Below are positions 13,910 through 55,385 of a stretch of DNA of 64,000 nucleotides, in pieces. The notes beneath the pieces were generated by a model. It had not been told where the DNA came from, ran no database searches, and was given only the letters and a program-made list of their open reading frames with translations. Origin of the DNA: a bacterium (GTDB lineage: Bacteria > BMS3Abin14); the NCBI GenBank assembly GCA_020350725.1, contig CP070719.1, positions 1,579,404-1,643,403 on the forward strand. Direction: 5' to 3'. A program made the position numbers and the translations under genes. Position 1 is the first letter of the stretch. Each line of letters opens with the position of its first letter.

Positions 13910-14042
13910 GGAGATCGGCCGTCAGAGGTCAGACGTCAGACATTTGGCGTCAGACATCAGAGATCAGACATTGGAGATTAGAGATTGGAGATTGGGGATT
14001 AGATAATAGAGGTCGGATATTGGAGATCAGACAGTTGGATAT
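13910..14042. repeat. tandem heptanucleotide array, 19 degenerate 7-bp units (GGAGATC / AGACATT / AGAGATT ...)
   Basis: Strict 7-bp register can be read off directly: ggagatc ggccgtc agaggtc agacgtc agacatt tggcgtc agacatc agagatc agacatt ggagatt agagatt ggagatt ggggatt agataat agaggtc ggatatt ggagatc agacagt tggatat. Confidence 0.85.
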
Positions 14043-14096
14043 CGGGGAAAGGGACCGGAGAGGCAGGAGAATTGATGCCGGATCAGGGGAATTGTC

Positions 14097-14873
14097 ATGA
14101 ACCTATGGAATAGATCGGTTTTTCGCTTCGCCTGTTCCTTTGTCCTCATCCTGACGGCGGCTTCCTGCGCCTCGACGAAGGACAGGGTATCGGATGCCGA
14201 ACGGGATGGGGAACTTTACTACGAGTTGGGGGTAAGAAATCTCGTCGAGGGCAACATTGAGAAGGCGTTCTTCGAGTTGGCAAAAGCAGAGCGCCTGAAG
14301 CCGAAGGACGCCAAAGTCCACTTCGCCCTGGGAACCGCCTACCTCTACAGGGGACAGGCCGAGATGGCTGTTGAGAGTTTCAGGAAGACCGTCAGGCTCG
14401 ATCCGGGCCACGCCGATGCCTACAACAACCTCGGTGCGGCTTACCTGATGCTCAAGCGGTGGGACGAGGCGATAGAGGCCTGCCAGAAGGCCCTCGACCA
14501 GCTCGGATATCGAACGCCGGAAAAGGCCCTGACGATCATGGGCTGGGCCCACTACAAAAAGGGTGAACCCGCGGAGGCCGTCAACCTCCTCAGGCGCGCC
14601 CTGTCGGTGTCACCGAAAGCCCCGGATCCTTCCAACAAGCTGGCCGAGATATACCTCGAACAGGGCAATATCCAAAAGGCGAAGCCGATCCTGCAGGAAC
14701 TGGTGAGGACGGTCCCTCAGTTCGCAAAGGCGAGGCTGAATATGGGCATCGTCTACTACAAGGAACGCGATTTTGTGGCGGCACGGGACGAGTTCCAGGC
14801 CGTTATCGAGCTCTCGGACAGGGATAGCGAGGATGCGCAGTTGGCCAGAGGTTATCTGGATCTGATCGAGTAG
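14097..14873 (+). CDS. TPR-repeat lipoprotein, PilW/PilF-like
   Basis: Signal peptide with lipobox LTAASC. At least 5 TPR motifs. Size (258 aa) and position next to rodZ resemble the pilF/pilW-rodZ neighbourhood of other proteobacteria. Confidence 0.6.
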   Translation: MNLWNRSVFRFACSFVLILTAASCASTKDRVSDAERDGELYYELGVRNLVEGNIEKAFFELAKAERLKPKDAKVHFALGTAYLYRGQAEMAVESFRKTVRLDPGHADAYNNLGAAYLMLKRWDEAIEACQKALDQLGYRTPEKALTIMGWAHYKKGEPAEAVNLLRRALSVSPKAPDPSNKLAEIYLEQGNIQKAKPILQELVRTVPQFAKARLNMGIVYYKERDFVAARDEFQAVIELSDRDSEDAQLARGYLDLIE

Positions 14874-15018
14874 GTTACCTCCGAAGAAGTACCCCGTCCA
14901 AGGCCCTCCATATCATTCCTCCGGCCTGTCCGACACCGAACAGATGGATCCTCTCACCCGGGGCGCGTGATCCCGGGGGCCGCTTTTCCCGGTCGGGCAG
15001 GCCGTGAGATCTGTGATA

Positions 15019-15759
15019 ATGGACGAGACGAACCTGACAGCGAACCATCTCGGAGAGCTTCTCCGACAGATGAGACAGAGGCAGGGTATCGACCTCCGTG
15101 ACCTGGCGGCGATGACAAAGATCAGCGTCCGCCATCTCACCGCTCTGGAGGAAGGGGATCTGGAAGGGATGCCCGGCACCTTCTTCGTCAGGGGTTTCGT
15201 CCGGAGCGTGTGTGCCGAGCTGCGCCAGGATCCCACGGAATGTCTGGAAATCCTCGACGTCCTGTTTCCCGAGGATGACGAGCCGGAGAGGAGCGTCGGT
15301 ACTGGTGCCGGACCCAGGAATGTGACCCTGCCTCTGACAGCTGCAGGGCTGGCTCTGCTCCTTCTTCTCGGAGGGGGGATCCTTCTCCTCAGCCGGGAAG
15401 ATCCCCGGTCAAAGCAGCCGGCCGCGATGGATGCCGGAGCGGCCGTCACCGGCGGGAAGGCAATCGGATCCGGCAGGGTCGAGCAGGATGCGGAAGAGAT
15501 CCCCGTCCCGGTGGACCTGAATCTTCTCATCAGAGCCATCGAGAGAACGTGGATGCGGATCCAGACCGATGAATCCGATTCCTGGGAGACAACAATGCGG
15601 CCGGGAGACGAGATCCGCCTGAGGGCAACAGAGAGCATTAATCTGCTCATCGGCAATGCCGGAGGGATCATTTTCGATCTCAACGGGAGACGGTTCGGGC
15701 CACCCGGGTCCCACGGGCAGGTCATCTCCAACTATGTCCTGACGCGGGACAACCTGTAG
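15019..15759 (+). CDS. rodZ: RodZ-like cytoskeleton protein (N-terminal HTH, TM segment, C-terminal DUF4115)
   Basis: XRE-type HTH (LGELLRQMRQRQGIDLRDLAAMTKIS), central hydrophobic helix (LALLLLLGGGILLL), and a C-terminal domain resembling DUF4115. ORF-track start is GTG at 15004; the ATG is at 15019. Confidence 0.6.
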   Translation: MDETNLTANHLGELLRQMRQRQGIDLRDLAAMTKISVRHLTALEEGDLEGMPGTFFVRGFVRSVCAELRQDPTECLEILDVLFPEDDEPERSVGTGAGPRNVTLPLTAAGLALLLLLGGGILLLSREDPRSKQPAAMDAGAAVTGGKAIGSGRVEQDAEEIPVPVDLNLLIRAIERTWMRIQTDESDSWETTMRPGDEIRLRATESINLLIGNAGGIIFDLNGRRFGPPGSHGQVISNYVLTRDNL

Positions 15760-15761
15760 GT

Positions 15762-15960
15762 GGAGATGGCATAAGGGAAATGGGAGATCGAAGTGGCGGA
15801 GTTCGAGATCGGACATCCGGAGCGGGAAACTGGAGATCAGAGAATAAAGTGTCCGTGACGCCACCTGTCACCACTTGGGTTTTCTGACCTCCCATTTCCA
15901 CTCTCCAATAGCCGGTTGCCGAACGATTGATCTCCACTGCCCATTTCCCGGCCCCCACGG
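15762..15960. repeat. heptamer array followed by inverted copies of its units (hairpin-forming element) in the fusA2 leader
   Basis: Units in 7-bp register: ggagatg gcataag ggaaatg ggagatc ... ggagatc agagaat. Downstream segments ctcccatttcca and gatctccactgcccatttccc are reverse complements of ggaaatgggag / tggagatc. Confidence 0.7.
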
Positions 15961-15997
15961 GATGTCCGCCAGTGTCCCATTCCATTAAGGGAGCCCT

Positions 15998-18019
15998 ATG
16001 TCGCTGGAAAAGCTCAGAAATATAGGGATCATTGCCCATATCGACGCGGGTAAGACCACGACCACAGAGAGGATCCTCTACTATACGGGAAAGATCCACC
16101 GGATGGGCGAGGTGGATCTGGGATCGGCCCAGATGGACTGGATGACCCAGGAACAGGAGCGGGGGATAACCATAACATCGGCAGCGACCACCTGTCGGTG
16201 GCGGGATCACACCATCAACATTATCGACACGCCCGGCCACGTCGATTTTACCGCCGAGGTGGAGCGGGCCTTGAGGGTCCTGGACGGCTCCATCGTTGTC
16301 TTCTGCGCGGTCGCCGGTGTACAGCCCCAGTCCGAAAAAGTGTGGAGACAGGCCGATCAATACCATGTTCCAAGGATAGTATTCATTAATAAAATTGACA
16401 GGATAGTAGCAAATCCTAATACATCACTGGAGGAAATTGAAAGGAAATTGAATGCCCGTCCTCTCCCCATTCAGATGCCCGTAGGATTGGAATCCGATTT
16501 TTTGGGAGTCGTCGACCTCCTCACCATGCGTCTCGTTGCCTGGAGGGACGATGAGGGAGATGATCCGGATTACGGGGACATTCCCGAGTCGGTCATTGAC
16601 GAGGCGCGAAGATGGAGGGAATCCCTGGCGGAGATCCTTTCCGACGAAGACGACAGGATCATGGAACTCTTCCTCGACGGTCAGGAGGTCCCCGTGCATC
16701 TCATGCAGGAGGCGATCAGGAAGGGAACCCTCAGGAGAAGTTTTTACCCTGTTGTTTTCGGATCGGCCCTGAAGAAGAAGGGCATTCAACCCCTTCTGGA
16801 AGCCGTCGTCGACTATCTGCCCTCTCCCAGGGACCTGCCACCGGTCGTCGGTGTCTGGGCAGGAAAGAGGGAGGAGCGTGCCCTCAGCGAGGAGGATGCC
16901 TTCTGCTCGCTGCTCTTCAAGATCATGGCCTTCTCCGGAAGACCCAATCTTTTCTATCTGAGGGTTTACTCGGGCAGGGCCAAACTGGGGGATAAGATAT
17001 TCAACTCCCGGACAGGAAGGACCGAGCGGGTCATGAAGGTCCTGAGAATGCACGCCAACAGGCGCGAGGAGGTAAAGGAGATGGCGGCGGGTGATATCGT
17101 AGCCCTCGTCGGCATCAAGGACGCGAGGACGGGGGACACCTTCTGCGACCCGGGCCACCTCATCAGCCTCGAGGAACTCTTCTTCCCCGAACCGGTCATC
17201 TTCGTCTCCATCGAGCCCAAGAGCGCCAAAGATCAGGACAGGATGATGGAGGTTCTCACCCTGCTGGCCGAGGAGGACCCGACTTTCGGCGTCCGGATAG
17301 ATGACGAGACCGGACAGGTCATCCTCAGCGGTATGGGAGAACTCCATCTCGAGGTCCTCGTTGAGCGTCTGTTCTCCGACTTCAAGGTCCAGGGCCGGGT
17401 GGGGAGGCCGCAGGTCTCCTTCCGTGAGACGGTCACGAAGTCTGCGACTGTTCAGGAGTTGTTTTCCAGGGAGATAGCGGGAAAGGAGCATGAGGCTTCC
17501 GTGACCCTTTCCATCGAGCCCAAACCGGGCGGCGGGAAGGTTCAGTTCGTAAACCGGTGTCCCGACGGGAAGATCCCTCCTGAGTTCCTTTCCTGTATCG
17601 AACGGTCGGTCTATGAGGCTTCGACGAGCGGTGCGAAGGCCGGATACCCCGTGATCGACGTCGAGGTTATCCTGGTCGATGGTGTATACCATCCGGAGAA
17701 GGCCTCGGAGACGGCTTTCAGCGCTGCCGCCTCGGGAGCCCTGACGAAATGTCTCAGGGACGGCGCCCCCGTCCTCCTGGAGCCGGTCATGGCAGTCGAG
17801 GTCGAGACACCCGATGATTACACCGGCGAAGTTGTGGGCAGTCTCACGGTGAGGCGGGCGACCATCGCGGGAGTCAGAAGACAGGGGCAGATCGAGGTGG
17901 TCAAGGCCAAGGTCCCCCTCAGCGAGATGTTCGGTTACACCACTTCTCTCAGGTCCGTCACCCAGGGTCGCGGCACCTTTACCATGGAACTCTCTGAATA
18001 CCGCCGGGTGGAAGGCTGA
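15998..18019 (+). CDS. fusA: elongation factor G paralog (EF-G2-like)
   Basis: G1 [10 protein letters not shown]3 DTPGHVDF, G4 NKIDR, plus EF-G domains II-V. 673 aa. It stands alone, not in the str operon, so it is a second-copy EF-G. Confidence 0.9.
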
Positions 18020-18834: not shown

Positions 18835-18859
18835 GCAGCGGCATCCCTGAGGGGGAATT

Positions 18860-22062: not shown

Positions 22063-22367
22063 ACATGAAAGGGAAAACCCAGAATCCAAAGACCGAAATA
22101 ACAGACCAAATCTGGGACCGGCAGGGCTGCCAAAAAAGGAATTCATTCTGTTGGCATAAGGATGTGGTAAATCCGGACAGGTTTTCGCCGAGGAACGCGG
22201 TACCCGACCCTGAGGAGAGAACCCTGGACGAACGAGAATGGAAACTGAGGATTATTAATCCTTTTGGATTTCGGACCCGCCTGCGCCAAGGCCCCGGCGC
22301 GGCAAGCTTTGGATCTTGGATTTGAACCCTGCTACACACCTTGCCCAATACAGGTGCGAACCATCCC

Positions 22368-24380: not shown

Positions 24381-24418
24381 GTGCTGCAAAGGGGCGCATG
24401 GGTGAGCGGGCGAGAATT

Positions 24419-24537
24419 TAGTGTCTAGAGTCTAGTGTCTAGTTCTAGAAACTAGGAACCAGAACCAGAAACGCTCTCTGTTGTTTGATCAATACTCTTG
24501 ACTTTTAGATTTTGGATTTTGGATTGTAATCTTGAAA
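24419..24537. repeat. two heptamer arrays in the glyQ-glyS spacer (TAGTGTC-type, containing a near-palindrome, then TTTTGGA-type)
   Basis: tagtgtc tagagtc tagtgtc tagttc tagaaac taggaac cagaac cagaaac (24419-24472), then ttttaga ttttgga ttttgga ttgtaat (24503-24530). ctagttctagaaactag is a near-perfect palindrome. Confidence 0.8.
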
Positions 24538-24555
24538 CTCATGAGGATTATCTAA

Positions 24556-26625
24556 ATGACACGTGACCTGTTACTTGAGATCGGAACGGAAGAGATCCCG
24601 GCCAGCTACCTGCCGCCCGCCCTCGAGCAGATCCAGAGCCTGGCGGCCAGGGAGCTCACCGGCCAGCGCATCGCGTTCGGGAAGACGGCCGCATACGCCA
24701 CACCCAGGAGGATCGTCCTCCATATCACGGATGTAGCAGAGGCCCAGGAGACAAGCGTCAAGGAGGTCCTCGGACCGGCCAGGGCGGTGGCCTTCGATGA
24801 CAAGGGCAAACCCACCAAAGCCGCCGAGGGCTTTGCCAGGGGCCAGGGTATAACTGTCAAGGACCTGAAGACCGTCCAGACGCCCAAGGGGGAGTACGTG
24901 GCCGCCGTCAAGAAGGAGGCCAGCCAGCCCACCGCTGAGATCCTTCCCGCGATCATGCCCAGGATCATCACGTCCCTCCATTTTCCCAAGATGCAGCGAT
25001 GGGGGTATCTGAACCTCCGGTTCCCCCGCCCCATCCGCTGGCTTCTCTGTCTTTTCGGATCCGACGTCGTTCCCTTCGACCTGGAGGGGATCGAGTCGGG
25101 CCGGATGATGACCGGCCATCGTTTCATGGCCCCCGGGCCCTTCGAGATCAAGGACGTCAAGGATTATTTCCGCCAGGTCAAGAGGGCCAGGGTGGTTCTT
25201 GATCAGGACGAGAGGAAGGATATCATCCGTAAGGGTATCACCAAGGCAGCCGAGGAGGTGGGCGGAAAGCCCATCGAGGACGAGGCCCTGCTGGACGAGG
25301 TCACGTACCTCGTGGAATTCCCGGTTGTCCTCACCGGAACCTACGAGAAGAGGTATCTTTCCCTGCCCTGGGAGGTTCTGATCACCTCCATGAGTTCCCA
25401 CCAAAGGTACTTCTCGGTGACGAACAAGAGCGGCAAATTGCTGCCCTATTTCATTACCATCAGCAACAATGTGGCCAGGGACAACGCCCTTGTCGCCCAG
25501 GGGAACGAGAGGGTGTTAAGGGCCCGCCTCGAGGACGCCATGTTCTTCTTCGCTGAGGACAGAAAGATCCCCCTCATGACGAGGGTGGAGGAACTCAAGG
25601 ACGTGGTCTTCCAGGAGAAGCTGGGTACGTCCTACGAGAAGATGGAGCGCTTCCGTGCCCTGGCCCGGTACCTGGCGAAGAGGGTCGAGCCCGACAGCCT
25701 CGACGAGGTGAAAAAGGTGGCTACCCTGTGCAAGGGCGACCTGGTGACCCAGATGGTGGGTGAATTCGCCGACCTCCAGGGGGTCATGGGCAAGGAGTAT
25801 GCCCTGCTCGAAGGAGAGAGCAAGGTGGTCGCCCGGGGGATCAGCGAGCACTATTATCCCAAGTTCTCCGGTGACCGGACACCGGACACGGTGGGCGGCG
25901 CTGCGGTCAGTCTCGCCGACCGCATGGACACCGTGTGCGGCTGCTTCGGCATAGGCATCACCCCCTCCGGAACGGCGGATCCCTACGGTATCAGGAGACA
26001 CGCCCTGGCCATCATCGCCATCCTCATGGATCGGAAATGGAGGATCTCCCTTGCTGACCTGATGAAGGAGTCCCTGAAGCTTCTCAAGGGCAAGATCGAG
26101 GTGGCGCCAAAGGATGCCCTGGCGAGCCTGAGCGATTTCTTCAGGGGACGCCTCCAGCACCAGTTCACTGGACGGGGTTTCCGCCACGATCTGGTGCAGG
26201 CCGTTCTTGCCGACCACTGGGCAGACCCGGTGGACGCGGCCGATCGTCTCGACGCCCTGGCGAAGTTCTCCGAGAAGACCGGTTTCGCAGACCTGATCCT
26301 GTCCTTCAAGCGGGTGATGAACATCATCCCAGAGGGATTCCGGGGCAAACCGGACAAGAGGAAGGCCAGACACCGGGTGGAGAAGGACCTCCTCGACGCG
26401 GCCAGAGATGCCGGAAAGGACGTGGCCGGTTTGCTGGAGGCCGGCAAGTACACCCAGGCCCTCAACCGGCTGGCTAAGCTCAAAAAGCCGGTGGACGCCT
26501 TCTTCGACGGCGTCATGGTCATGGACAAGGACAGGTCCGTCCAGAAGAACCGCCTGGCCATCCTCCAGGAGGTTTCGGACCTGTTCGCCCAGGTGGCGGA
26601 TTTCAGGAAAGTGGTGACAGAGTAA
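24556..26625 (+). CDS. glyS: glycine--tRNA ligase beta subunit
   Basis: 689 aa. GlyS tRNA-binding arm and anticodon-binding domains. Immediately follows glyQ. Confidence 0.93.
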   Translation: MTRDLLLEIGTEEIPASYLPPALEQIQSLAARELTGQRIAFGKTAAYATPRRIVLHITDVAEAQETSVKEVLGPARAVAFDDKGKPTKAAEGFARGQGITVKDLKTVQTPKGEYVAAVKKEASQPTAEILPAIMPRIITSLHFPKMQRWGYLNLRFPRPIRWLLCLFGSDVVPFDLEGIESGRMMTGHRFMAPGPFEIKDVKDYFRQVKRARVVLDQDERKDIIRKGITKAAEEVGGKPIEDEALLDEVTYLVEFPVVLTGTYEKRYLSLPWEVLITSMSSHQRYFSVTNKSGKLLPYFITISNNVARDNALVAQGNERVLRARLEDAMFFFAEDRKIPLMTRVEELKDVVFQEKLGTSYEKMERFRALARYLAKRVEPDSLDEVKKVATLCKGDLVTQMVGEFADLQGVMGKEYALLEGESKVVARGISEHYYPKFSGDRTPDTVGGAAVSLADRMDTVCGCFGIGITPSGTADPYGIRRHALAIIAILMDRKWRISLADLMKESLKLLKGKIEVAPKDALASLSDFFRGRLQHQFTGRGFRHDLVQAVLADHWADPVDAADRLDALAKFSEKTGFADLILSFKRVMNIIPEGFRGKPDKRKARHRVEKDLLDAARDAGKDVAGLLEAGKYTQALNRLAKLKKPVDAFFDGVMVMDKDRSVQKNRLAILQEVSDLFAQVADFRKVVTE

Positions 26626-26631
26626 GCGGCT

Positions 26632-26750
26632 GGGTCAAAGGTCAAAGGGGAAAGGGGAAAGGTAAAAGGTAAAAGATAAAAGGTTAAAGGGGAAAGGATA
26701 AAGGGGAAAGGCGACCACTTTAACCCTTATCCTTTTCCCTTTACCCTTAT
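26632..26750. repeat. AAAGGGG-type heptamer array folded against its own inverse (imperfect long palindrome), copy 1
   Basis: ggtcaaa ggtcaaa ggggaaa ggggaaa ggtaaaa ggtaaaa gataaaa ggttaaa ggggaaa ggataaa ggggaaa gg, then a cgaccac loop, then tttaacccttatccttttccctttaccc, which is the imperfect reverse complement. Confidence 0.8.
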
Positions 26751-26783
26751 AAAAGGGCCCTTCGTGGCCCTTTATTTCTTTTC
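26751..26783 (+). terminator. rho-independent terminator (likely bidirectional)
   Basis: AAAA GGGCC cttcgt GGCCC TTTATTTCTTTT. GC stem of 5 bp flanked by an A-tract and a T-tract. Confidence 0.75.
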
Positions 26784-26784
26784 G

Positions 26785-26904
26785 GGAAAGTGGTGACAGA
26801 GCAGGTGGCAAGGGGAAGGGTAAAAGGTGAAAGGTTAAAGGGGAAAGGGGAAAGGGGAGAGGGGAGAGGCGTCCGCTTTAACCTTTATCCTTTTCCCTTT
26901 ACCC
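26785..26904. repeat. copy 2 of the glyS 3' end (22-bp match) plus an AAAGGGG-type palindromic heptamer element
   Basis: tttcgggaaagtggtgacagag (26780-26801) matches tttcaggaaagtggtgacagag at the glyS stop (26601-26622). It is followed by a second aaagggg/gagaggg array and an inverted arm tttaacctttatccttttccctttaccc. Confidence 0.8.
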
Positions 26905-26995
26905 TGATTAATTGATTTTGGATTCTCATTCCTTCCCTTGCCCCATCCCCCCTGATGCGGTTATATTCCTGTTACAATTTAACGGTAATCCAATC

Positions 26996-28265: not shown

Positions 28266-28583
28266 ATGAAGAGGATTGTCGTTGTTCTCATGATCTTGAC
28301 CCTGGCGATGGCCCTGAGCGGAGTGGTCCTGGCCGACGCGGATAAGCCGGCGGTGGCCGAGAGCGGCGCGGTGGACATGGAGGCGGCAAAGGCCACCTTC
28401 GAGAACACCTGTTCCAAGTGCCACGCCCTCAGCCGAGCCATGGCCAAGAAGAAGGACCTCGCGGGATGGCAGGCGACGGTGAAGAGGATGTCCACGAACC
28501 ACCGCATACGATTTGGCGAGGAGATCTCCCAGGAGGATCAGGAGGCCATCGTTCAGTACCTGCTGGAGAACGCGGGGAAGTAG
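28266..28583 (+). CDS. small secreted mono-heme c-type cytochrome (putative)
   Basis: Signal peptide MKRIVVVLMILTLAMALSGVVLA. Single CxxCH (CSKCH). RBS AAAGGAGAA. 105 aa. Confidence 0.6.
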   Translation: MKRIVVVLMILTLAMALSGVVLADADKPAVAESGAVDMEAAKATFENTCSKCHALSRAMAKKKDLAGWQATVKRMSTNHRIRFGEEISQEDQEAIVQYLLENAGK

Positions 28584-28590
28584 GAAGAAG

Positions 28591-28806
28591 CAGCAGTCAG
28601 TAGACAGTATTCAGGATTCAGGAAAAGCTCCCCAAACAGCTACCGGAAAAATCAACCGGTTTTTTGAATTTAAAAACCATACAAAACGGGAACTTACAAA
28701 GCCTACTTAATATCTTACATTAAATTTTGCATGCCCGTTTTTCTCTTGACTGATGGATATTCCTGAATTCTGAATACCGACTACTGATTACTGAATCCTG
28801 ACTCCC
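28591..28806. repeat. inverted-heptamer-array-flanked AT-rich element (MITE-like or sRNA-like cassette)
   Basis: Left array tagacag tattcag gattcag (28601-28621). Right array ctgaatt ctgaata ccgacta ctgatta ctgaatc ctgactc (28763-28804) is its imperfect reverse complement. The core carries a 21-bp palindrome GGTTTTTTGAATTTAAAAACC (28658-28678) and a hairpin AAAACGGG...CCCGTTTTT (28683-28742). Confidence 0.7.
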
Positions 28807-28815
28807 GGTCCTAAC

Positions 28816-30039
28816 TCACACGCTCCTCCTCACCCCCCTCGGCCGCCAGGACGGCGGGATGATTCCGTTCGATCCACGCAGGTCCGGCAACTGGTCCGCA
28901 TACATGGCGGAGAACTCCCCGTACCGGTCATTGATAAGATCGAGGGCCCCCTGCAGGGAGTCCTCTTCTCTGTCGGCGGGGAAGAGGGATCCCTGCAGGC
29001 AGCCGAACCGGAGGTGGCTCAGTGAGATCCCCAGGAGGCGGATGGGCCTTACGATGGATACCGAATCCAGAATGGCCGACGCTGATCGGTAGATCCGGCT
29101 GGTGGTCCTGATCGGATGGGCCAGCGTCATCTGCCTCGAAAAGGTGGTGAAATCCCGGTAGCGTACGGTCAGTGTCACCCTGTTTCCGGCACAGTCGTGA
29201 CGGCGCGCCCTCCGTCCGACCATCTCCGAGAGGGTCAGGAGAACCCGTCGCGCGGTGACAAGGTCGGTGACATCGCGGGGCAGGGTTGCCGAATGTCCGA
29301 TGCTCTTGACCTTTTCGTTGCCCGCCCCCAGGGGCACGACGGGGGAATCCTCCTCTCCTCGTCCCATTCTCGAAAGGGTGTGTCCCAGGACACCGAATTC
29401 ACGGACCAGGATCTGCAGCGGGAAACGTCCCAACTGGCCGCAGGTCGAAATGCCCATGGATCCCAGACGGCGTTCGGTCTCCGGACCGATGCCGCACAGC
29501 TTTCCCACCGGCATGCTTTCCATGAGGTCCCTTACGTCGCCAGGGGCAAGGACCGACAGTCCATCGGGTTTTCTCCGGCCGCCGACCAGTTTTGCCAGCA
29601 GCTTGTTGGGACCGATCCCCACGGAACAGGTGAGGCCGGTCTCCTCCCGAATCCGTTCCTTGATCCTCCCCCCGAGGGTCTCAGCCCCCCCGAAACGGTT
29701 CAGATCGGTGGTCACATCCAGAAAGGCCTCATCGACGGAATAGGGCTCCACGAGAGGGGTGAAAGATTCAAGGATATCGATGATCATGGCCGAGACGTGA
29801 CTGTACTTCCGGTGATCACACCGGACTATGACAAGGGCGGGACACAGTTTCAGGCCCTGACCGAGAGCCATGCCCGTCCTGACGCCGAACTCCCTCGCCG
29901 CATAGGATGCGGTGGTGATGATGGTCCTCTGTCCCGGCCCGGCCACTGCCACCGGTTTGCCCCTCAGGGAAGGGTTGTCCACCTCTTCCACCGAGGCGAA
30001 GAAGGCATCCATGTCCACGTGGAGGATCACCCGGTTCAT
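28816..30039 (-). CDS. dinB: DNA polymerase IV (Y-family)
   Basis: N-terminal HVDMDAFFASVE catalytic motif. Full Y-family polymerase length (407 aa). Third gene of the lexA operon. Confidence 0.9.
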   Translation of the reverse strand: MNRVILHVDMDAFFASVEEVDNPSLRGKPVAVAGPGQRTIITTASYAAREFGVRTGMALGQGLKLCPALVIVRCDHRKYSHVSAMIIDILESFTPLVEPYSVDEAFLDVTTDLNRFGGAETLGGRIKERIREETGLTCSVGIGPNKLLAKLVGGRRKPDGLSVLAPGDVRDLMESMPVGKLCGIGPETERRLGSMGISTCGQLGRFPLQILVREFGVLGHTLSRMGRGEEDSPVVPLGAGNEKVKSIGHSATLPRDVTDLVTARRVLLTLSEMVGRRARRHDCAGNRVTLTVRYRDFTTFSRQMTLAHPIRTTSRIYRSASAILDSVSIVRPIRLLGISLSHLRFGCLQGSLFPADREEDSLQGALDLINDRYGEFSAMYADQLPDLRGSNGIIPPSWRPRGVRRSV

Positions 30040-30290: not shown

Positions 30291-31057
30291 CGGGCGTTTC
30301 CCCCTTTGAGGATGCGGATAACGGCCTCGACCCTGCCCGCGATCCTGGTTGTCCCGGCATCCTCTCCGGTGAGGACGATGGCCGGGAATTCCGGATTGGC
30401 CGCCTCGAGAGCGATCCCGTCCCGGGTCCTTCGGAATCTCTTCAGGGTGGCTTCGTCGCCCACCACCGCGACCACGATGTCGCCGTCATATACTGTGGCC
30501 TGCGGTCTGACGAGGGCCAGATCCCCCGGCAAGATCTGTTCTCCCCGCATGCTGTTTCCCTTCACCCTGAGGAGAAAGTGATCCTGCCCAGCCAGGTTTT
30601 CATCGAGGTGGATGTAATCCTCCACCTCCTCGGCGGCAAGATCGAGGGCTCCGGCGGCCACCGATCCGACCACCGGAACAGGCACACCACCGGGCCCGTC
30701 GAGGGGTGAGGGGAACCGGGACAAAATCTCCAGGCCACGGGAGATACCGGGAATCCTCCTGATGAGCCCTTTCCGCTCCAGCGCCTCCAGGTGCTTGGCC
30801 GCAGCCCGCGGACCGGAGAGGTTCAGGTGATGGGCCAGTTCACGAACAGTGGGGGGATAGCCGTTCTCGGAAAGGAAGGTCCTGATATATGCCAGGACCT
30901 GTTGCTGTCTGGGTGTGAGTTCGTGCAAAAGGCCGCCCTCCCAATTATCAGATCTCCGACTCCATATCCGACAGGAATTCAAAGTCCACAGCCTGCCATC
31001 CGACTTTTCCACCGCTGCTATCAGCGAAGTTGGAAGCTTCACTTCAGGTGGGTCCAA
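30287..31057 (-). CDS. lexA: LexA repressor
   Basis: Winged-HTH LTPRQQQVLAYI...TVRELA. S24 peptidase catalytic Ser in GNSM and the Lys region (ATLKRF). Ala-Gly cleavage site (VAAGAL). ORF-track start is TTG at 31057. A more LexA-typical start is the in-frame TTG at 30928 (MHELTPRQQ), giving about 214 aa. Confidence 0.88.
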   Translation of the reverse strand: MDPPEVKLPTSLIAAVEKSDGRLWTLNSCRIWSRRSDNWEGGLLHELTPRQQQVLAYIRTFLSENGYPPTVRELAHHLNLSGPRAAAKHLEALERKGLIRRIPGISRGLEILSRFPSPLDGPGGVPVPVVGSVAAGALDLAAEEVEDYIHLDENLAGQDHFLLRVKGNSMRGEQILPGDLALVRPQATVYDGDIVVAVVGDEATLKRFRRTRDGIALEAANPEFPAIVLTGEDAGTTRIAGRVEAVIRILKGGNAR

Positions 31058-31127
31058 AATCCAAGATGAACAGAACTATGAATTAGGCCTGGCCGAAATC
31101 GGGGATTTTGGGTATTTACTTGACACT

Positions 31128-31172: not shown

Positions 31173-31480
31173 CACATGGGGTCTTAGAGGTAAAGAGGCA
31201 TTCGGGTCGGCAAGGCCCTTTCGGTTTCTTTACAACGGACCCGTTAAGTGATAGAGTTTGGCATCAAAGCGTCAAGTAGGACTCAACGGTTACGGGAATC
31301 AGCCCCCGGCCGGCTCCCTCCGCGGGCAGACTCGTCCGGCGGTGTCTGTCCGGTGCCGGTGTTCCGCCGGCGGAAGCGACGGGCCGGGGCATGTGAAGGG
31401 GCTCCTCTTTCCGACGGGCGTAATCCCCTTTGCCGCACCGTCTGCACGGGCACGTTCGGGAGCATTGTCGAGAATATGTC

Positions 31481-35415: not shown

Positions 35416-35652
35416 GGCCTACTCCCCGTGATTCGTGACTTCTGACTCGTGTAGTCAAATCGGGAACGTACTGAAGTATAAATCTCCGGCATTCGATCAC
35501 CAAGGTAGAAATCCCCGACCGATAGAGGAACCACCCATTGCCTCGACTTCAGACGACAAGAGGGGAACGGGGACGCCCATCTCTCCGAAATACGAATCAC
35601 GGATCACTCTCTTTCAGGGGCTTATTCCCGCTTTCTTTTATAACCACATTCC

Positions 35653-36621: not shown

Positions 36622-36749
36622 GGCTTCGGCAGATCCAGAATCCAAAGTCCAAAAAGTTAAAACCCATTGTACCTTGCATATAACGGCTCTAACTTTTTAC
36701 TTTTACCTTTTCACTTTCCACTGATTCCCGGTTTGACGTCGGGCGGTCG

Positions 36750-36941
36750 TCAATCGAATATCCCCCCGCAGTGGGAGAGAAAAACGGCGATGAGGACCAC
36801 AATGGCCACCAGGTAGAGCAGACAGCCGGTGGCCTCGAGGATCTTCCTGACGGTGTTTTTCGTGCCTTTTCCTCTCACGGCGACCCATGCTAACAGAAAA
36901 ACGGGGTCTGAACCATATCGTAAAATAGCGGCCGGTTTCAT
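36750..36941 (-). CDS. small putative membrane protein (63 aa from internal ATG)
   Basis: MKPAAILRYG...CLLYLVAIVVLIAVFL carries one clear TM segment. Weak RBS. Could be a non-coding region. Confidence 0.3.
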   Translation of the reverse strand: MKPAAILRYGSDPVFLLAWVAVRGKGTKNTVRKILEATGCLLYLVAIVVLIAVFLSHCGGIFD

Positions 36942-37215
36942 GTCGTCCCGGTGACAAATTGGGTCAGAAAATTTTTCCCGCTCCCCCGTTTCAGGAAAGG
37001 CAGACCCCTCGCTCCACCGGATCCCCGTCTCGGCAAACCACAAGAAAACCTATTTAGAATAGCTTGTTTAAGGCCCTCCCGAAGCAGTTTCCTGTGCCGT
37101 AATTGCCGGGAGGATTCTGCACAGAATCAATAGGTTACATTGGCAAATTATTTGCAATCGATAAGGTAAAGAAATAGCTGCCGTCAGGAATCGATCAGAA
37201 AGGGGGAGGTACTCG

Positions 37216-37589: not shown

Positions 37590-37666
37590 GGCGGTGTAGC
37601 TCAGGTGGTTAGAGCATGCGGCTCATATCCGCAGTGTCCGGGGTTCAAGTCCCTGCACCGCCACCA
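37590..37666 (+). tRNA. tRNA-Met (anticodon CAT); elongator or possibly lysidine-type tRNA-Ile2
   Basis: Manual cloverleaf fold. Acceptor stem GGCGGTG/CACCGCC with G1-C72. D arm GCTC-AGGTGGTTA-GAGC. Anticodon stem TGCGG/CCGCA with loop CTCATAT. T arm CGGGG-TTCAAGT-CCCTG. Discriminator A plus encoded CCA. It is not an initiator tRNA (no C1xA72, no 3 G-C pairs in the anticodon stem). Confidence 0.85.
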
Positions 37667-37678
37667 CCCTAAAATAAA

Positions 37679-37702
37679 GGCCCTTTTCAGGGCCTTTTTT
37701 TT
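37679..37702 (+). terminator. rho-independent terminator after the tRNA
   Basis: GGCCCT tttc AGGGCC followed by T8. Confidence 0.8.
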
Positions 37703-40464: not shown

Positions 40465-40558
40465 GATAACCCCCTTATTGGACAGTGGTCGGTGAAAGGA
40501 TCAACTCTGGAATGATCGGGCTAAGTCGAAAAAAGTCTATTAAAGTCAAATTGTTAAC

Positions 40559-40593
40559 TGGAAACTGGAAACTGGAAACGAGAAACTGTGTCG
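40559..40593. repeat. heptamer array CTGGAAA x3 + CGAGAAA in the acnB upstream region
   Basis: ctggaaa ctggaaa ctggaaa cgagaaa ctgtgtc, read directly from sequence. Confidence 0.8.
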
Positions 40594-43045: not shown

Positions 43046-43129
43046 TATATTTTCCTTTTCTTCTGGAGTTCTCTTTCAGCGCGGGTGGCATCATAGAGTA
43101 TTTTGGGTGGAATGGGAAGGGGGGTGCAG

Positions 43130-43157
43130 GTGATCGGTGATCTGTGATCAGTGATCG
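43130..43157. repeat. heptamer array GTGATCG x4
   Basis: gtgatcg gtgatct gtgatca gtgatcg. Confidence 0.8.
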
Positions 43158-43194
43158 GAAGAGACGGTTGAAACACCCAGAGCGACCGTGGTCT

Positions 43195-50043: not shown

Positions 50044-50882
50044 AAACGAGTTCGGCGGTGAAGAAGACCAGATCCACCTCCAGCAGCAGATCCGGGAAGC
50101 AGAGGTCTGGGGCGCACTGGATCAAGCTGGACGCCCAGGGCGTTTACTACAAGGACCTGAATCGGCAGATCCGGTCCCTGGCCCTTCAGGGAGATCGGAG
50201 GTTTGAGATCCACAACGTCTTCGGACAGCGTTACCTGGGTACGAACCTCTGGGGCATCGAGGGCCGGGACAGGATCGTGATCCGAGTATACGGCACGCCG
50301 GGTTCGGATATGGGGGCGTTCATGGACGGGCCCAGGATAGAGGTGTTCGGCAACGCCCAGGACGCCACCGGCAACACCATGAACTGCGGCCAGATCGCTA
50401 TCCACGGTTCCGCCGGAGATGTCCTCGGCTACGGCATGAGGGGGGGCGAGATCTACGTCCGGGACAACGTGGGGTACCGGGTCGGCATTCACATGAAGGA
50501 ATACAGGGATAAAATCCCGACGGTGGTCATCGGTGGCACGATGCAGGATTTCTTCGGGGAATACATGGCCGGAGGGAGGATCATCGTACTCAACAAGTTC
50601 TTCGCCGACAACCCCCCCGTTCGGAGGAGCTATTTCATCGGCACGGGGATGCACGGCGGCAATATCTACGTCCGCGGTGACGTGGACCTGCACCAGATCG
50701 GCGCGGAGGTCGGAATCGCCAGTCCCACGGATGCCGAGTGGAAGATCATCGAGAAATATGTGCACAATTTCTGCAAGGTCTTCGGGCTGGAGGAGAACAA
50801 GGCCAAACTCCTCAAGAGGCACAAGTTCACTCGATTATATGCCAAATCGTCCAGGCCATACGGCAGGCTGTATGCATACTGA
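50040..50882 (+). CDS. glutamate synthase GXGXG-domain subunit
   Basis: Repeated GXGXG beta-helix motifs (GTPGSDMGAFMDGPRIEVFGNAQDATGNTMNCGQIAIHGSAGDVLGYGMRGG). ATG at 50040 overlaps the previous stop (ATGA). Confidence 0.85.
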   Translation: MKTSSAVKKTRSTSSSRSGKQRSGAHWIKLDAQGVYYKDLNRQIRSLALQGDRRFEIHNVFGQRYLGTNLWGIEGRDRIVIRVYGTPGSDMGAFMDGPRIEVFGNAQDATGNTMNCGQIAIHGSAGDVLGYGMRGGEIYVRDNVGYRVGIHMKEYRDKIPTVVIGGTMQDFFGEYMAGGRIIVLNKFFADNPPVRRSYFIGTGMHGGNIYVRGDVDLHQIGAEVGIASPTDAEWKIIEKYVHNFCKVFGLEENKAKLLKRHKFTRLYAKSSRPYGRLYAY

Positions 50883-50952
50883 GGACTGAGTACTAAGGAC
50901 TAAGGACCAGGTGCTGATAGCTGAGTGCTGAGTATTGGACACTGGAAACTGA
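50883..50952. repeat. heptamer array (GGACTGA / GGACTAA / GTGCTGA ...), 10 units
   Basis: ggactga gtactaa ggactaa ggaccag gtgctga tagctga gtgctga gtattgg acactgg aaactga. Confidence 0.8.
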
Positions 50953-51690: not shown

Positions 51691-52437
51691 ATGGTCCTGA
51701 ACGAAAAACAGGTCGAGATGTGCAGGAGCAGCCGATGGGATTTTTCAGGCCTGAGTGCGCTGTTCCTCAATTGCACCCTGAAGCGGTCGCCGGAGATATC
51801 CCACACCGAGGGGCTGGTCAGGATATCCCGGGCCATCATGGAGAAAAACGGCGTCCGGACAGAGGTGCTGCGCCCCGTGGATCATGAGATCGCCAGCGGC
51901 GTCTATCCCGACATGACCGAGGCCGGGTGGTCCAGGGACGATTGGCCCTCGATCTACGAAAAGGTCCTGGGTGCGGACATCCTGGTGGTGACTTCACCCA
52001 TCTGGCTCGGTGAGAAATCCTCGGTGTGCACGAAGGTTATCGAGCGGCTCTACTCGACCTCAGGGGAACTGAATGAAAATGGACAGTACGCCTATTATGG
52101 GCGGGTTGGAGGGTGCCTGATCACGGGCAACGAGGACGGGGCCAAACACTGTGCCATGAACATCCTGTATTCCCTGCAGCACCTGGGTTACGTCATCCCC
52201 CCTCAGGCGGATGCGGCCTGGGTGGGCGAGGCCGGTCCCGGACCGTCCTACCTGGATCCCGGGTCGGGAGGGCCCGAAAACGATTTTACCAACCGGAACA
52301 CCACCTTCATGACGTGGAACCTCCTGCACCTGGCCCGCATGTTAAAGGATGCCGGCGGCGTGCCGGCTCACGGCAACCAGCGCTCCAGGTGGGAAGCGGG
52401 GTGCCGCTTCGACCACCCCAATCCGGAGTATCGGTGA
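51691..52437 (+). CDS. NAD(P)H-dependent FMN reductase / flavodoxin-fold oxidoreductase
   Basis: Flavodoxin-like NADPH-dependent FMN reductase pattern (LFLNCTLKRS...GADILVVTSPIWLG...). ATG at 51691 lies inside the longer ORF. Confidence 0.65.
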   Translation: MVLNEKQVEMCRSSRWDFSGLSALFLNCTLKRSPEISHTEGLVRISRAIMEKNGVRTEVLRPVDHEIASGVYPDMTEAGWSRDDWPSIYEKVLGADILVVTSPIWLGEKSSVCTKVIERLYSTSGELNENGQYAYYGRVGGCLITGNEDGAKHCAMNILYSLQHLGYVIPPQADAAWVGEAGPGPSYLDPGSGGPENDFTNRNTTFMTWNLLHLARMLKDAGGVPAHGNQRSRWEAGCRFDHPNPEYR

Positions 52438-52643
52438 GCGAGGCATCTCGAGGAGCGGCAGCCGACAGCCGATCCCGGACCGGCGCACGGGATCCCCGGG
52501 GGCCTCGGAGACCTCGGGCAGAGAGACCTTCCGTCCCTGGGGAGCGGGGCACGATCCGCTGCCGGTGCATGCGTCGCGCTTTGGCTGGGACAATTCTATG
52601 ACGGGAAGGAGCCTGACCAGGTGATCGCAGGGACGGCCAAACC

Positions 52644-54023: not shown

Positions 54024-54198
54024 CAGAGATCCGTGATCAGCAGAGGCGAGGGACGCCCGAGAAAAGAGAAGGGGACAAGCGCTCTTTCCGGATCAGGAAT
54101 GGCTGGTTTCAGACAACTGTGGACCGGGAATTCTTCGACAGGCGCGGGACAGCTTGGCAACGGGTAACTGTATTCAGAGAACTGTGGATCGGAATACC

Positions 54199-54765
54199 AT
54201 GAGTAGCGTTAACAGATGCCCCTGGGCGGAGAGCAGCGAGCTGATGATCAAATACCATGACCTGGAGTGGGGAGTTCCGCTGCACGATGACCGCGGCCTT
54301 TTCGAGTTCCTTGTCCTCGATGCGTTTCAGGCCGGACTGAGCTGGGAGATCACGCTGAGAAAGAGGGAGGCCTTCCGCTCGGCCTTCGATGGCTTCGATC
54401 CGGAGACCGTGGCATCCTACGACGGGCGGAAAAGAGAGGAGCTGCTCGGCAACCCGTCAATCATCCGCAACAGGAAAAAGATCGAGGCTTCCATCGCCAA
54501 CGCGGGACTCTTTCTGGACATCCGAAACGCATTCGGCAGCTTTGATGACTACATCTGGGGGTTCACCGGCGGGCGGGTCATCCGAAACTCCTGGCAGTCG
54601 GTGGATCAGATACCTGCCTTCACCGCTGAGTCGGAGGCCATGAGCCGGGATCTGAGGGGACGCGGGTTCAGGTTCGTCGGACCGACCATCTGTTACTCCT
54701 TCATGCAGGCCGCCGGAATGGTCAACGATCACCTTGTGAGCTGTTTCCGGTACGATGAAGTTTGA
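54199..54765 (+). CDS. tag: DNA-3-methyladenine glycosylase I
   Basis: Tag family pattern CPWA...YHDLEWG.P..DD..LFE.L.L..FQAGLSW. C-terminal zinc ligands (H...C). ATG at 54199. Confidence 0.85.
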   Translation: MSSVNRCPWAESSELMIKYHDLEWGVPLHDDRGLFEFLVLDAFQAGLSWEITLRKREAFRSAFDGFDPETVASYDGRKREELLGNPSIIRNRKKIEASIANAGLFLDIRNAFGSFDDYIWGFTGGRVIRNSWQSVDQIPAFTAESEAMSRDLRGRGFRFVGPTICYSFMQAAGMVNDHLVSCFRYDEV

Positions 54766-54776
54766 CGTTTGAGGCC

Positions 54777-55002
54777 TTTTAATCCAATCCAAAATCCAAA
54801 AAAAAGCTCCGAAAACAAGGATTTGAGGTTGGAAGATCCTTCTGAATCAGGGATCTCAAGTCCGTCCGCCGCCCCATCAGCTCCCATCTGAGTTGAAAGA
54901 TTAAGCGATAAGATAGGTTCAATTTCTCAGGAAGTATTAACCGGGTCAACCTTGTGTTTTTTGGATTTTGGACTTTGGATTTTAGATCTGGAAATCTGAT
55001 GG
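54777..55002. repeat. heptamer arrays (AAAATCC-type, then TTTGGAT-type) downstream of tag and of the DUF4031 gene
   Basis: ccaatcc aaaatcc aaaaaaa ... (54784-54867) and ttggatt ttggact ttggatt ttagatc tggaaat (54961-54995). Confidence 0.7.
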
Positions 55003-55012
55003 CCGGGATGGT

Positions 55013-55330
55013 TCACTCCGGCCGGTGCGGGATCTTCCTCGGCCGACCCAGCCGGCCCCTCCTCGGGCCCATTACCGACCTCTTCTTCTTCAGGATGCGC
55101 CCAAGCTCCCGCCGGTCGACGACGGGTACGCCGGCCGCCCTGACAAGGTGGATCTCTCCCCCCCTGATGTCGTAATGCTCGGCATAGGTGTGCAGGGCGT
55201 GGATCCTGCGTCTTATCAGACCGATCCTGTCAGCGAACTCCTCAAGTTCCCTGGAGCCGGCCTCGCCGGCCTTGTCGGAGAAGAGATGTGCCCAGCCGTC
55301 GCTCCTCGGTCTGTCCATGAAGATAGCCAT
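55013..55330 (-). CDS. DUF4031-family small protein
   Basis: MAIFMDRP...WAHLFSD...ELEEFADRIGL...HYDI...AGVPVVDRREL matches the DUF4031 pattern (MxVYVDD..W.HL.SD..EEL..FA.R.GL...HYD...A...GA..V..REL). Only the C-terminal 105 codons of the 188-aa track ORF look coding. Confidence 0.55.
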   Translation of the reverse strand: MAIFMDRPRSDGWAHLFSDKAGEAGSRELEEFADRIGLIRRRIHALHTYAEHYDIRGGEIHLVRAAGVPVVDRRELGRILKKKRSVMGPRRGRLGRPRKIPHRPE

Positions 55331-55357
55331 AATTCGTGGAATCAGGTCCGGTTCCCG

Positions 55358-55385
55358 CTTTGGACTTTGGATTTTGGAATTTGGA
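55358..55385. repeat. heptamer array CTTTGGA x2, TTTTGGA, ATTTGGA upstream of the DUF4031 gene
   Basis: ctttgga ctttgga ttttgga atttgga. Confidence 0.8.

Follow-up and report, generated by a model that had tools for sequence, protein, structure and literature searches.

The 64,000-nt stretch of DNA analyzed here (hereafter, the window) corresponds to positions 1,579,404 to 1,643,403 of contig CP070719.1 (assembly GCA_020350725.1, lineage BMS3Abin14), and its intergenic spacers carry dispersed tandem arrays of degenerate 7-bp units. The genes in the window have ordinary housekeeping functions and include recG, rlmN, a sigma factor gene, nadB, rodZ, fusA (encoding EF-G), rnc, era, mgtE, recO, glyQ, glyS, dinB, lexA, smc, ftsY, acnB, nadE, a glutamate synthase gene, and beta-oxidation genes. 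A preliminary description of this DNA had listed 14 array intervals and considered the gene content non-cyanobacterial, in agreement with the GlyS comparison. Among 185,579 genomes, the only species-level relatives by GlyS are three metagenome-assembled genomes (MAGs), referred to here as L010 (90% identity), L005 (88%), and L003 (77%), and the next matches, with at most 50% identity, come from Desulfuromonadales and Syntrophia-type MAGs.

Heptanucleotide arrays in the window

Tandem periodicity was assessed with Tandem Repeats Finder (TRF) and by sliding autocorrelation over 21-nt segments, in which every base was matched to the base p positions further on (p from 2 to 15) and at least 18, 15, or 13 matches out of 21 were required. 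TRF returned 55 rows over the 64 kb, 30 of them with a period of 7, 14, or 21. At the 18/21 threshold, signal was found solely at p = 7 (304 bases) and p = 14 (129 bases), and thirty block-wise dinucleotide-preserving shuffles gave 0 bases at every period. The 15/21 threshold delineated 17 period-7 segments, 15 of which lie outside genes; period-7 coverage at this threshold is 9.2% of the non-coding bases (8.5 kb in total) versus 0.07% of the coding ones, and the respective values at 13/21 are 17.1% and 0.42%. Other periods cover at most 3.5% of the non-coding bases each. Period 7, accompanied by its multiples 14 and 21, is the sole tandem periodicity that exceeds the shuffled controls. Compared with shuffles one at a time, 12 of the 14 intervals gave p ≤ 0.005, interval 31051-31085 was marginal (p = 0.03), and interval 22074-22115 tested alone was not significant (p = 0.13). 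Contigs assembled independently from short reads of at least 10 sequencing runs contain the arrays as well.

The heptamer arrays are real, nearly restricted to non-coding DNA, and dispersed over the window (17 to 24 arrays between 9 and 58 kb). They are heptanucleotide microsatellites that belong, in the broad sense, to the short tandemly repeated repetitive (STRR) or long simple sequence repeat (LSSR) class. The preliminary description was right in reporting arrays in the non-coding gaps, the signal of which lies far above shuffled controls, and its STRR-like label is supported by the excess of periods 7 and 14. Some of its wording was too strong. Spacers “built from” arrays are few (26626-26911, 13901-14096, and 24381-24555), and the expression does not hold as a general statement for arrays that cover 9.2 to 17.1% of the non-coding bases; similarly, period 7 dominates, but the register described as strict is interrupted in places by 6- and 8-base slips. 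A separate compositional feature of the window, whose genome has 59% G+C, is the non-heptameric spacer 57839-58112, which is strikingly AT-rich (for example, the run TTATAAAAATTAAATATATTAAGTATTTAAGAATTTAG).

The arrays and associated features are listed below by position; f7 denotes the period-7 match fraction.

9202-9257: weak degenerate heptamer array in a tandem (+,+) spacer (f7 = 0.45 versus at most 0.30 for other periods; p = 0.0015)
13913-14040: long array of GGAGATC, CAGACAT, and GGAGATT units upstream of a TPR gene, beginning 12 nt past the stop of gene 13049-13900 (f7 = 0.63, p = 0.0005; TRF rows 13920-14039; 99-nt segment)
15762-15845: purine-rich left array, 3 nt past the rodZ stop, forming the 5' arm of a spacer-spanning hairpin (p = 0.0005)
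15886-15968: pyrimidine-rich right partner, complementary to 15761-15826, ending ~30 nt before the EF-G gene start (f7 = 0.41, p = 0.0055)
22074-22115: (ATCCAAA)-type array, 12 nt past the mgtE stop (weak alone; 17 nt are 82% complementary to 22307-22323)
22263-22330: (TTTGGAT)-type partner, ending 11 nt before the recO start (p = 0.038; inverted repeat; spacer fold z = -2.3)
24395-24472: arrays of GGGYGAG, TAGTGTC, and GAACCA in the glyQ-glyS spacer, 15 nt past the glyQ stop (f7 = 0.51, p = 0.0005; TRF 24419-24472)
24493-24532: (TTTTGGA)n array, its end 23 nt upstream of the glyS start (f7 = 0.67, p = 0.0005); L010 and L005 have related arrays at this position
26629-26751: (AAAGGGG / AAAGGTA)n array, 3 nt past the glyS stop, then an inverted (CCCTTTA)n array from 26718 (TRF; imperfect hairpin)
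26752-26773, + strand: intrinsic-terminator-like hairpin with a T run, just 3' of the array hairpin (best terminator-like site of the scan)
26781-26907: second copy of the preceding array unit, with a decayed glyS 3' end (26781-26806) and an (AAGGGGA)n array paired with (CCTTTAC)n (both copies aligned with L010)
28590-28626: (TCAGGAT / TCAGTAG)n array in a convergent spacer, 6 nt past the stop of a cytochrome c gene (85% complementarity to 28760-28793 over 34 nt)
28759-28809: (ATTCTGA / ATCCTGA)n partner, ending 6 nt from the dinB stop (period-7 segment and inverted repeat)
35420-35450: short (CGTGATT)-type array, 5 nt past the stop of the gene following smc, with an 11-nt exact inverted match to 35588-35614 (f7 = 0.50, p = 0.0095)
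35588-35614: (AATCACG)-type partner, ~40 nt before the ftsY start (f7 = 0.50, p = 0.0125)
36633-36660: (ATCCAAA)n array, 12 nt past the ftsY stop (f7 = 0.67, p = 0.0005)
36688-36723: (CTTTTAC)n array, not complementary to 36633-36660, 26 nt away from the stop of gene 36750-37043 on the minus strand (TRF; f7 = 0.72, p = 0.0005)
40546-40590: (CTGGAAA)n array, ~80 nt upstream of the acnB start (TRF; p = 0.0005)
43122-43161: (GGTGATC)n array, 33 nt past the nadE stop, minus strand (f7 = 0.86, p = 0.0005)
50873-50952: (ACTGAGG / ACTAAGG)n array, then (GTGCTGA)n, overlapping the stop of a GXGXG glutamate-synthase-type gene (TRF; p = 0.0005; distance from the stop, -10)
54777-54805: short (ATCCAAA)n array, 12 nt past the stop of a methyladenine glycosylase gene (p = 0.29 alone; 16 nt are 100% complementary to 54957-54972)
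54950-54991: (TTTTGGA)n partner, 21 nt from the stop of a minus-strand DUF4031 gene (TRF; f7 = 0.69, p = 0.0005)
55348-55393: (TTTGGAT)n array flanked by the stop of a small minus-strand cytochrome gene (55422-55682) and the DUF4031 gene start at 55330 (f7 = 0.90, p = 0.0005)
58387-58414: short array, 35 nt from an AMP-binding enzyme gene's stop, in a convergent spacer (f7 = 0.71, p = 0.0005)

The 188-aa open reading frame (ORF) at 55013-55682 (minus strand) represents two genes with the last but one of these arrays between them, one (55422-55682) for a small membrane-anchored protein with two CxxCH heme motifs and the other, starting at 55330, for the DUF4031 protein.

The units of different arrays are related to each other. 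When 47 consensus units were compared with up to one mismatch, in any rotation and on either strand, and with neighbors excluded, 87 related pairs were found, versus 22.8 ± 5.0 for units with permuted letters. Their common pattern, approximately T-N-S-A-R-A-N (GGAAATT-like), carries 4.66 bits versus 3.57 ± 0.13 in the null model. The families TTTGGAT, GGAGATT, GTTTCAA, CCAAAGT, and TAGTGTC recur within and between genomes, which contradicts the earlier statement that each locus has a unit of its own. Another recurrent motif, (NNNCTGA)3, has 11 matches in the window versus 0.37 expected, an ~30-fold enrichment. In an all-against-all comparison of the spacers, similarity between non-orthologous ones was restricted to the arrays.

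Occurrence and turnover among relatives

The period-7 density is 12.8 bases/kb in the window, 27.3 in L010, 15.1 in L005, and 30.8 in L003, as opposed to 1.67 bases/kb in 1.21 Mb of other glyS loci and 1.17 bases/kb in 429 kb of unrelated metagenome loci (found with a FadB-like protein, best match 59% over a fragment), where period 7 does not stand out. In a second genomic region, around nadE, five further relatives (L133-L137, 67-79% identity) show 9.8 to 29.8 bases/kb. The complete 2.16-Mb MAG CP070682.1 (L132, positions 1942498-1964150; 65% NadE identity) has the same gene order as the window (glutamate synthase cluster, nadE, two surA-like genes, ftsY, and smc), short spacers, and 1.3 bases/kb, that is, essentially no arrays, and it serves as a natural negative control. 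The presence of dense arrays in two regions of the relatives and their absence from CP070682.1 indicate a trait of a narrow clade and not of a single locus. The arrays are thus not limited to the window, a restriction that would have argued against the preliminary description.

Scattered heptamer arrays, often as inverted pairs beside glyS, are also found in other Desulfobacterota loci (L007, L011, L022, L024, L033, L055, L061, and L071), and one is found in a MAG labeled as Bacteroidota (L076). Accordingly, the unusual feature is density and not presence: 12.8 to 30.8 bases/kb compared with 1.2 to 1.7 in 1.6 Mb of other loci. The view that such an architecture would be unusual for a deltaproteobacterial-type genome is borne out in this quantitative respect but not in the sense of novelty, as arrays already occur in Geobacter metallireducens and in these scattered loci.

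Several relatives carry further elements in the vicinity of their arrays. L005 has a palindromic element of its own (GTCATTGCGA...AAGCAATCTCG.CAAAATGAGACTGC...TCGCAATGAC) at 6340-6430, 9790-9910, and ~16495-16531, each time beside heptamer arrays; this element is absent from the window. A 1.2-kb gene-free stretch downstream of glyS in L003 (3417-4611) is bounded by inverted (TCTCAGA)n arrays, has no Rfam match, and holds other arrays, including an octamer run, TCTCCGTG TCTCCGTT TCTCCATG, that matches the G. metallireducens “class 2” consensus TCTCCGTS. In L136, a DDE transposase gene directly follows the arrays downstream of nadE (5852-7138).

Array length changes on a very short evolutionary scale. 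The Logan contigs L001 and L002, which come from other sequencing runs, have flanks downstream of glyS that are identical to those in the window, and their arrays at this site differ from it by 21-, 14-, and 7-bp deletions and one extra GGTCAAA unit: array 26629-26751 differs by 21 bp and by the GGTCAAA unit in L001 and L002, and array 26781-26907 by 14-bp and 7-bp indels in L001. The arms of the hairpins change length independently between strains. Slipped-strand mispairing characteristically leaves this pattern, in which near-identical strains gain or lose complete 7-base units, and the replication slippage suggested in the preliminary description is directly supported by these indels. Larger slips happen too, as indicated by an ~180-bp tandem duplication within 26596-26911 that comprises the last ~27 nt of glyS (with the stop codon TAA changed to CAG) and the whole array hairpin. 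Arrays of greater degeneracy are stable; 13913-14040, for example, is unchanged in 8 Logan contigs, 5 of which break within it. Contigs L001, L002, L083-L085, L088, and L089 likewise begin or end at or inside heptamer arrays; the breaks show that the arrays fragment short-read assemblies of this organism.

Between the window and its relatives, whose genes are 72-83% identical, the arrays occupy corresponding spacers, with different lengths and units. After the nadE stop, for example, there is (GATCACY)n in the window, (TTCAGKA)n in L134 and L135, and (GYCCAGA)n in L136. The arrays inflate the spacers that they occupy: the glyQ-glyS gap has a median of ~16 nt over 75 genomes and measures 175 nt in the window, with array-bearing gaps of 168 to 296 nt in the window, L010, and L005 and a gap of 8 nt in L003. 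Independent heptamer arrays are present in the same gap in five unrelated genomes (L011, L022, L023, L039, and L076). In L076, a MAG labeled Tenuifilaceae, 159 of the 191 nt of the gap are array, and this near-perfect 23-unit (CAGCTAT)n run (1748-1906) is the purest array in any of the loci examined.

Placement, pairing, and folding of the arrays

Arrays tend to begin at the ends of genes. In four genomes, 14 of the 44 arrays start within 12 nt of a stop codon, where random placement within those spacers would give 5.1 (P = 0.0002), and several overlap the stop codon. Those near start codons end 14 to 31 nt upstream, which leaves room for a ribosome-binding site. Divergent spacers have 3.5% of their bases in arrays, versus 12-14% for tandem and convergent ones, and 2 of 10 divergent spacers contain arrays, versus 25 of 57 others; with so few divergent spacers, this is only a trend. 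When L133-L137 were added by eye, arrays were found in 4 of 14 divergent and 33 of 70 other spacers. There is also a trend for the A-rich strand to point away from the nearest ORF in its 5' to 3' direction (27:17, p = 0.087), and the same polarity test for the purine-rich strand gave 23:15 (p = 0.13). Similarity to Shine-Dalgarno sequences after stop codons (mean z = -0.87 against composition-matched shuffles) is due in part to the palindromic GATC and does not differ significantly between the sense and antisense strands (p = 0.16). A role of the arrays in supplying stop codons in all frames was dropped on inspection by eye, as most units contain no stop triplet.

Judging from their position, the arrays appear to lie within transcription units, for instance between the glyS stop and its terminator or inside the glyQS operon, whose genes specify different subunits of a single enzyme. 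Because the terminator-like hairpin 26752-26773 is located just downstream, the arrays that follow glyS would belong to its 3' untranslated region, and the same order of stop, arrays, and terminator is seen downstream of glyS in L010 and L003. In the case of acnB, a promoter-like site on the minus strand (40657-40630, TTTACA-16-TACAAT, a consensus match only) is separated from the gene by array 40546-40590, which is probably part of the acnB 5' untranslated region. Another promoter-like site, TTTACA-17-TAGAGT, overlaps a conserved non-coding stretch in the divergent lexA/smc spacer (31252-31296 in the window, ~16513-16557 in L010, and ~16813-16841 in L005) that is 84-96% conserved over 25 to 45 nt.

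Arrays that share a spacer are often inverted copies of each other. For inverted complementarity, eight of the 19 pairs within spacers score above the 95th percentile of pairs formed across spacers (Mann-Whitney p = 0.0046), and there is no enrichment in direct similarity (p = 0.50). The arms are 72-100% complementary (82% in both copies downstream of glyS, 26677-26710 with 26718-26751 and 26811-26844 with 26872-26905), and they are separated in some cases by loops of just 4 to 7 nt and in others by 100 to 215 bp of unique sequence. The inverted copies reported in the preliminary description are genuine in six to seven spacers, but not in all: about half of the arrays, including those at 13913, 24412, 40546, 43122, 50873, and 55348, are unpaired.

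As the arrays lie inside predicted transcription units, the inverted pairs would give long imperfect stem-loops able to close the whole spacer. Better folding than that of shuffled sequences was obtained for 28580-28820 (z = -6.1, with no shuffle folding equally well), 26620-26915 (z = -3.2), and the rodZ-EF-G spacer 15755-16000 (z = -2.6), as well as for the mgtE-recO spacer of L005 (z = -3.3); the array-bearing spacers 43046-43194 and 36622-36749 fold no better than their shuffles. The orthologous rodZ-fusA spacer of L010 has a longer hairpin of (GGAGATT)n and (AATTTCM)n (z = -5.1). A hairpin is present at this position in all three genomes (window, L010, and L005), and that of L005 is not heptamer based, so the structure has been kept while the sequence has not.

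Two details of the stems bear on how they arose. The variants GGATAAA and GGTTAAA have mirror counterparts in the opposing hairpin arm, which is what copying of one arm from the other would produce. Sense-strand mismatches show no bias of G-U over A-C (15:14), which fits inverted copying followed by neutral decay. The earlier suggestion of a family of structured RNAs finds support in the existence of hairpins but not in their mismatches, which lack a bias, nor in an Rfam scan of the window, L010, L005, and L003, in which the arrays matched no family. The sole Rfam and ARAGORN match in the window is a tRNA-Met (CAT anticodon, 37590-37666), with a strong terminator-like hairpin downstream of it (37676-37697); tRNA-Met was likewise all that Rfam recognized in L010, L005, and L003.

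Origin and possible roles of the arrays

Heptanucleotide arrays have reportedly been known since 1990 without an accepted function. The cyanobacterial STRRs, said to have been described in that year by Mazel and colleagues, are reportedly tandem heptanucleotides that form many dispersed intergenic arrays of unknown function. The classic units, found in heterocystous cyanobacteria, are CCCCAGT, TTGGTCA, and CAACAGT; these STRR1-3 units differ from those in the window, and the host is not a cyanobacterium. Heptanucleotides of Calothrix are also cited in the literature. The repetitive extragenic palindromic (REP) elements of enterobacteria and the bacterial interspersed mosaic elements (BIMEs) are transcribed and form hairpins after stop codons, between co-directional or convergent genes. 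REPs are conserved palindromes of 20 to 40 nt spread by REP-associated tyrosine transposases (RAYTs), whereas the arrays of the window are tandem heptamers, and the analogy with REP/BIME is only a functional one.

Among the closest published counterparts are the repeats GGGAATC of Xanthomonas and GGGGAYT of Nostoc strain PCC 7120, which form dispersed, degenerate arrays of 2 to 26 units, ~90% of them intergenic (Rehm et al. 2015, PMC4692102). On the sense strand these arrays lie up to 50 bp from the stop and on the antisense strand they lie upstream, with overlap of the stop codon in some cases; 70 to 75 of ~185 form convergent inverted pairs, and they are rare between divergent ORFs (PMC4692102). 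They vary between relatives at a given site, and their flanking genes share no function; the Xanthomonas repeats are transcribed, slippage has been proposed as their origin, and the function of both the Xanthomonas and the Nostoc repeats is unknown (PMC4692102). The arrays in the window resemble them in their location near ORF ends, overlap with stop codons, inverted pairing, length variation, and functionally unrelated flanking genes. They differ in having many unit families, a single array capable of forming a canonical G-quadruplex, and no preference for four units, and they are far denser, with 17 arrays in 64 kb compared with 186 arrays of a single unit family in the whole genome of Xanthomonas (Xcc) (PMC4692102). 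In the published repeats the 5' end of the purine-rich strand adjoins the ORF; in the window this polarity, like the scarcity between divergent ORFs, is a trend only.

In G. metallireducens, “class 3 global regulator binding sites” consist of eight pairs of approximately five tandem MTYCTGA units (ATTCTGA or CTCCTGA) on opposite strands, ~70 to 115 bp apart, the left array having the TCAGRAT form and the right one the ATYCTGA form; binding by IHF/HU-type proteins is the authors' proposal only (Aklujkar et al. 2009, PMC2700814). The pair 28590-28626 and 28759-28809 of the window, with ATTCTGA, ATCCTGA, and TTACTGA units in the same orientation 135 nt apart, agrees with them in units and arrangement, and the (CTCCTGA)n array of L136 and the (TTCAGKA)n array of L134 resemble the class 3 sites. 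However, G. metallireducens has eight such pairs and few other families, whereas in the window this family is one among many and the arrays are far denser. Heptamer arrays have been published as present in G. metallireducens and absent from Geobacter sulfurreducens.

A third group, directly repeated TAACTGA units, has been described in marine Beggiatoaceae as well as in some Cyanobacteria and Bacteroidetes (MacGregor 2015, PMC4679880). Like the arrays in the window, these repeats are intergenic heptamers that share a CTGA core and occur patchily among phyla. The TAACTGA arrays have two to six copies of one invariant unit, mostly in direct orientation, and extend over the ribosome-binding site just before start codons (PMC4679880), whereas those in the window are degenerate, comprise many units, lie mostly after stop codons, and are often inverted. 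As a broader category, the LSSRs of Mrazek et al. (2007), in the account given in PMC4679880 and PMC4692102, have 5- to 11-nt units with heptamers being the commonest, are attributed to polymerase slippage, and are found in larger, GC-richer, non-host-adapted genomes. LSSR is a statistical category and not a mechanism, and it is silent on the inverted pairing and shared vocabulary seen in the window. The 7-base unit itself has been suggested in the literature to be a property of the replicative polymerase.

With a probability of roughly 55%, we consider the arrays to be slippage-born microsatellites that are tolerated in untranslated linkers and are sometimes converted by fold-back copying into inverted pairs, the hairpins being either a by-product or a REP-like structure. 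Slipped-strand mispairing during replication would create and resize the arrays, which would accumulate in short untranslated linkers (between stop codon and terminator, between promoter and ribosome-binding site, and in intercistronic gaps). Both the inflation of spacers and the adjacency to stop codons would follow because expansion is tolerated in such linkers. Occasional fold-back copying through template switching would turn an array into an inverted pair, the arms of which would then drift and slip independently, and any benefit would be structural and REP-like (protection or processing of 3' ends), not sequence specific. A number of observations weigh against this explanation. Plain slippage does not predict a unit vocabulary shared in excess of chance (87 versus 22.8 pairs) between unlinked loci and with G. 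metallireducens, nor does it predict that same-spacer partners should be inverted and not direct. Hairpins that span the spacer recur at orthologous positions with different sequences; one arm downstream of glyS shows ~90% conservation in genomes with a gene identity of 75-83%; and the uneven occurrence of arrays among close lineages hints at a trans-acting factor.

The inverted pairing, the folding z values of -6.1, -3.2, and -2.6 in the window, -5.1 at rodZ-fusA in L010, and -3.3 at mgtE-recO in L005, and the rodZ-fusA hairpin shared by three genomes despite unrelated sequence would all be accounted for if the inverted pairs were selected RNA or DNA stem-loops that close the spacer in a REP/BIME-like manner, with slippage merely building the stems. 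Such stem-loops might protect the 3' end of the upstream mRNA, provide RNase III processing sites, or bring the stop codon near the next start, and the location of arrays upstream of terminators and the conservation of the right arm in the window and L010 are in line with these roles. Approximately half of the arrays have no partner, though, many spacers fold like shuffles, the arms are unequal (87 nt versus 32 nt) and change independently, and neither the G-U to A-C ratio nor the Rfam scan points to a selected RNA, so that selection for the stem-loops, and with it the proposed roles, is the main alternative but can be put forward only tentatively. Paired arrays could also be the terminal inverted repeats of miniature inverted-repeat transposons (MITEs), as some of them bound 100 to 215 bp of unique sequence and the transposase gene in L136 is located beside arrays. 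The spacers share only arrays and no core, some loops have just 4 to 7 nt, no target-site duplications were noticed, and no empty and filled sites were seen in the strain comparisons, which makes a MITE origin very improbable.

The shared vocabulary and the patchy distribution could instead reflect a trans-acting protein that binds the heptads and whose specificity sets the vocabulary. The omega repressor offers a precedent, as it reads arrays of 7-bp heptads. Candidate binders would include, for DNA, a nucleoid-associated protein or global regulator (as proposed for G. metallireducens) or an omega-type ribbon-helix-helix protein and, for RNA, S1, Csp, or a CsrA-like protein (as proposed for TAACTGA). 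The non-random vocabulary is shared by unlinked loci, other genomes, and other phyla, and proposals of this kind have been published for both the G. metallireducens and the TAACTGA repeats, but the units within one genome (GGAGATT, AAAGGGG, ATCCAAA, GATCACC, and TAGTGTC) are too diverse for a single sequence-specific protein. As the unit is also replaced between relatives at an orthologous site, the flanking housekeeping genes are unrelated to each other, no candidate protein emerged, and the similarity to Shine-Dalgarno sequences is weak and not strand specific, protein binding seems an unlikely basis for the arrays. Formation of G-quadruplexes, as in the Xanthomonas GGGAATC and Nostoc GGGGAYT repeats, is suggested by units such as GGGGATT and GGAGATC, which resemble the published ones, and by the motif at 26840-26864 (four GGGG runs with 3-nt loops). 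This motif is the sole canonical one among the arrays: only 1 of ~20 has four G runs of at least 3, most units have GG or no G run, and there is no four-unit preference, so G-quadruplexes as a general explanation are highly unlikely and largely refuted. Least credible of all are phase-variation (contingency) switches or an assembly artefact, which could be invoked for the copy number variation between strains and the breaks of short-read contigs at arrays. The arrays are degenerate and accompany housekeeping genes (glyQS, the EF-G gene, recO, nadE, acnB, and ftsY) without occupying promoter spacers or reading frames, and the same arrays are found in independent assemblies, many runs, and other MAGs.

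A bolder and rather improbable proposal is that the arrays are the cis-acting part of a dedicated, horizontally mobile system, in which a protein reads the heptads or an enzyme seeds and copies them at ORF ends. If true, it would explain the grammar (approximately T-N-S-A-R-A-N) that extends across phyla, with CTGA-type units in Geobacter, Beggiatoaceae, and the clade of the window and GGRRATY units in Xanthomonas, Nostoc, and this clade. It would also explain the inverted pairs at ORF ends and the on/off pattern, in which dense arrays in the clade are opposed to CP070682.1 and G. metallireducens to G. sulfurreducens.

No new category of repeats is opened by the arrays described here, and the window is distinguished by its many unit families, nearly absent G-quadruplex potential, and high density. 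What is added is an uncultured Desulfobacterota-related lineage in which the arrays are much denser than in any of the ~120 other loci sampled; in practice, the arrays also break short-read assemblies of the organism. Any model of heptanucleotide arrays has to meet the facts recorded in this lineage, namely, the variation of strains by whole units, the start of arrays at stop codons, the inversion within spacers, and a unit vocabulary that this lineage shares with G. metallireducens and with Xanthomonas and Nostoc.

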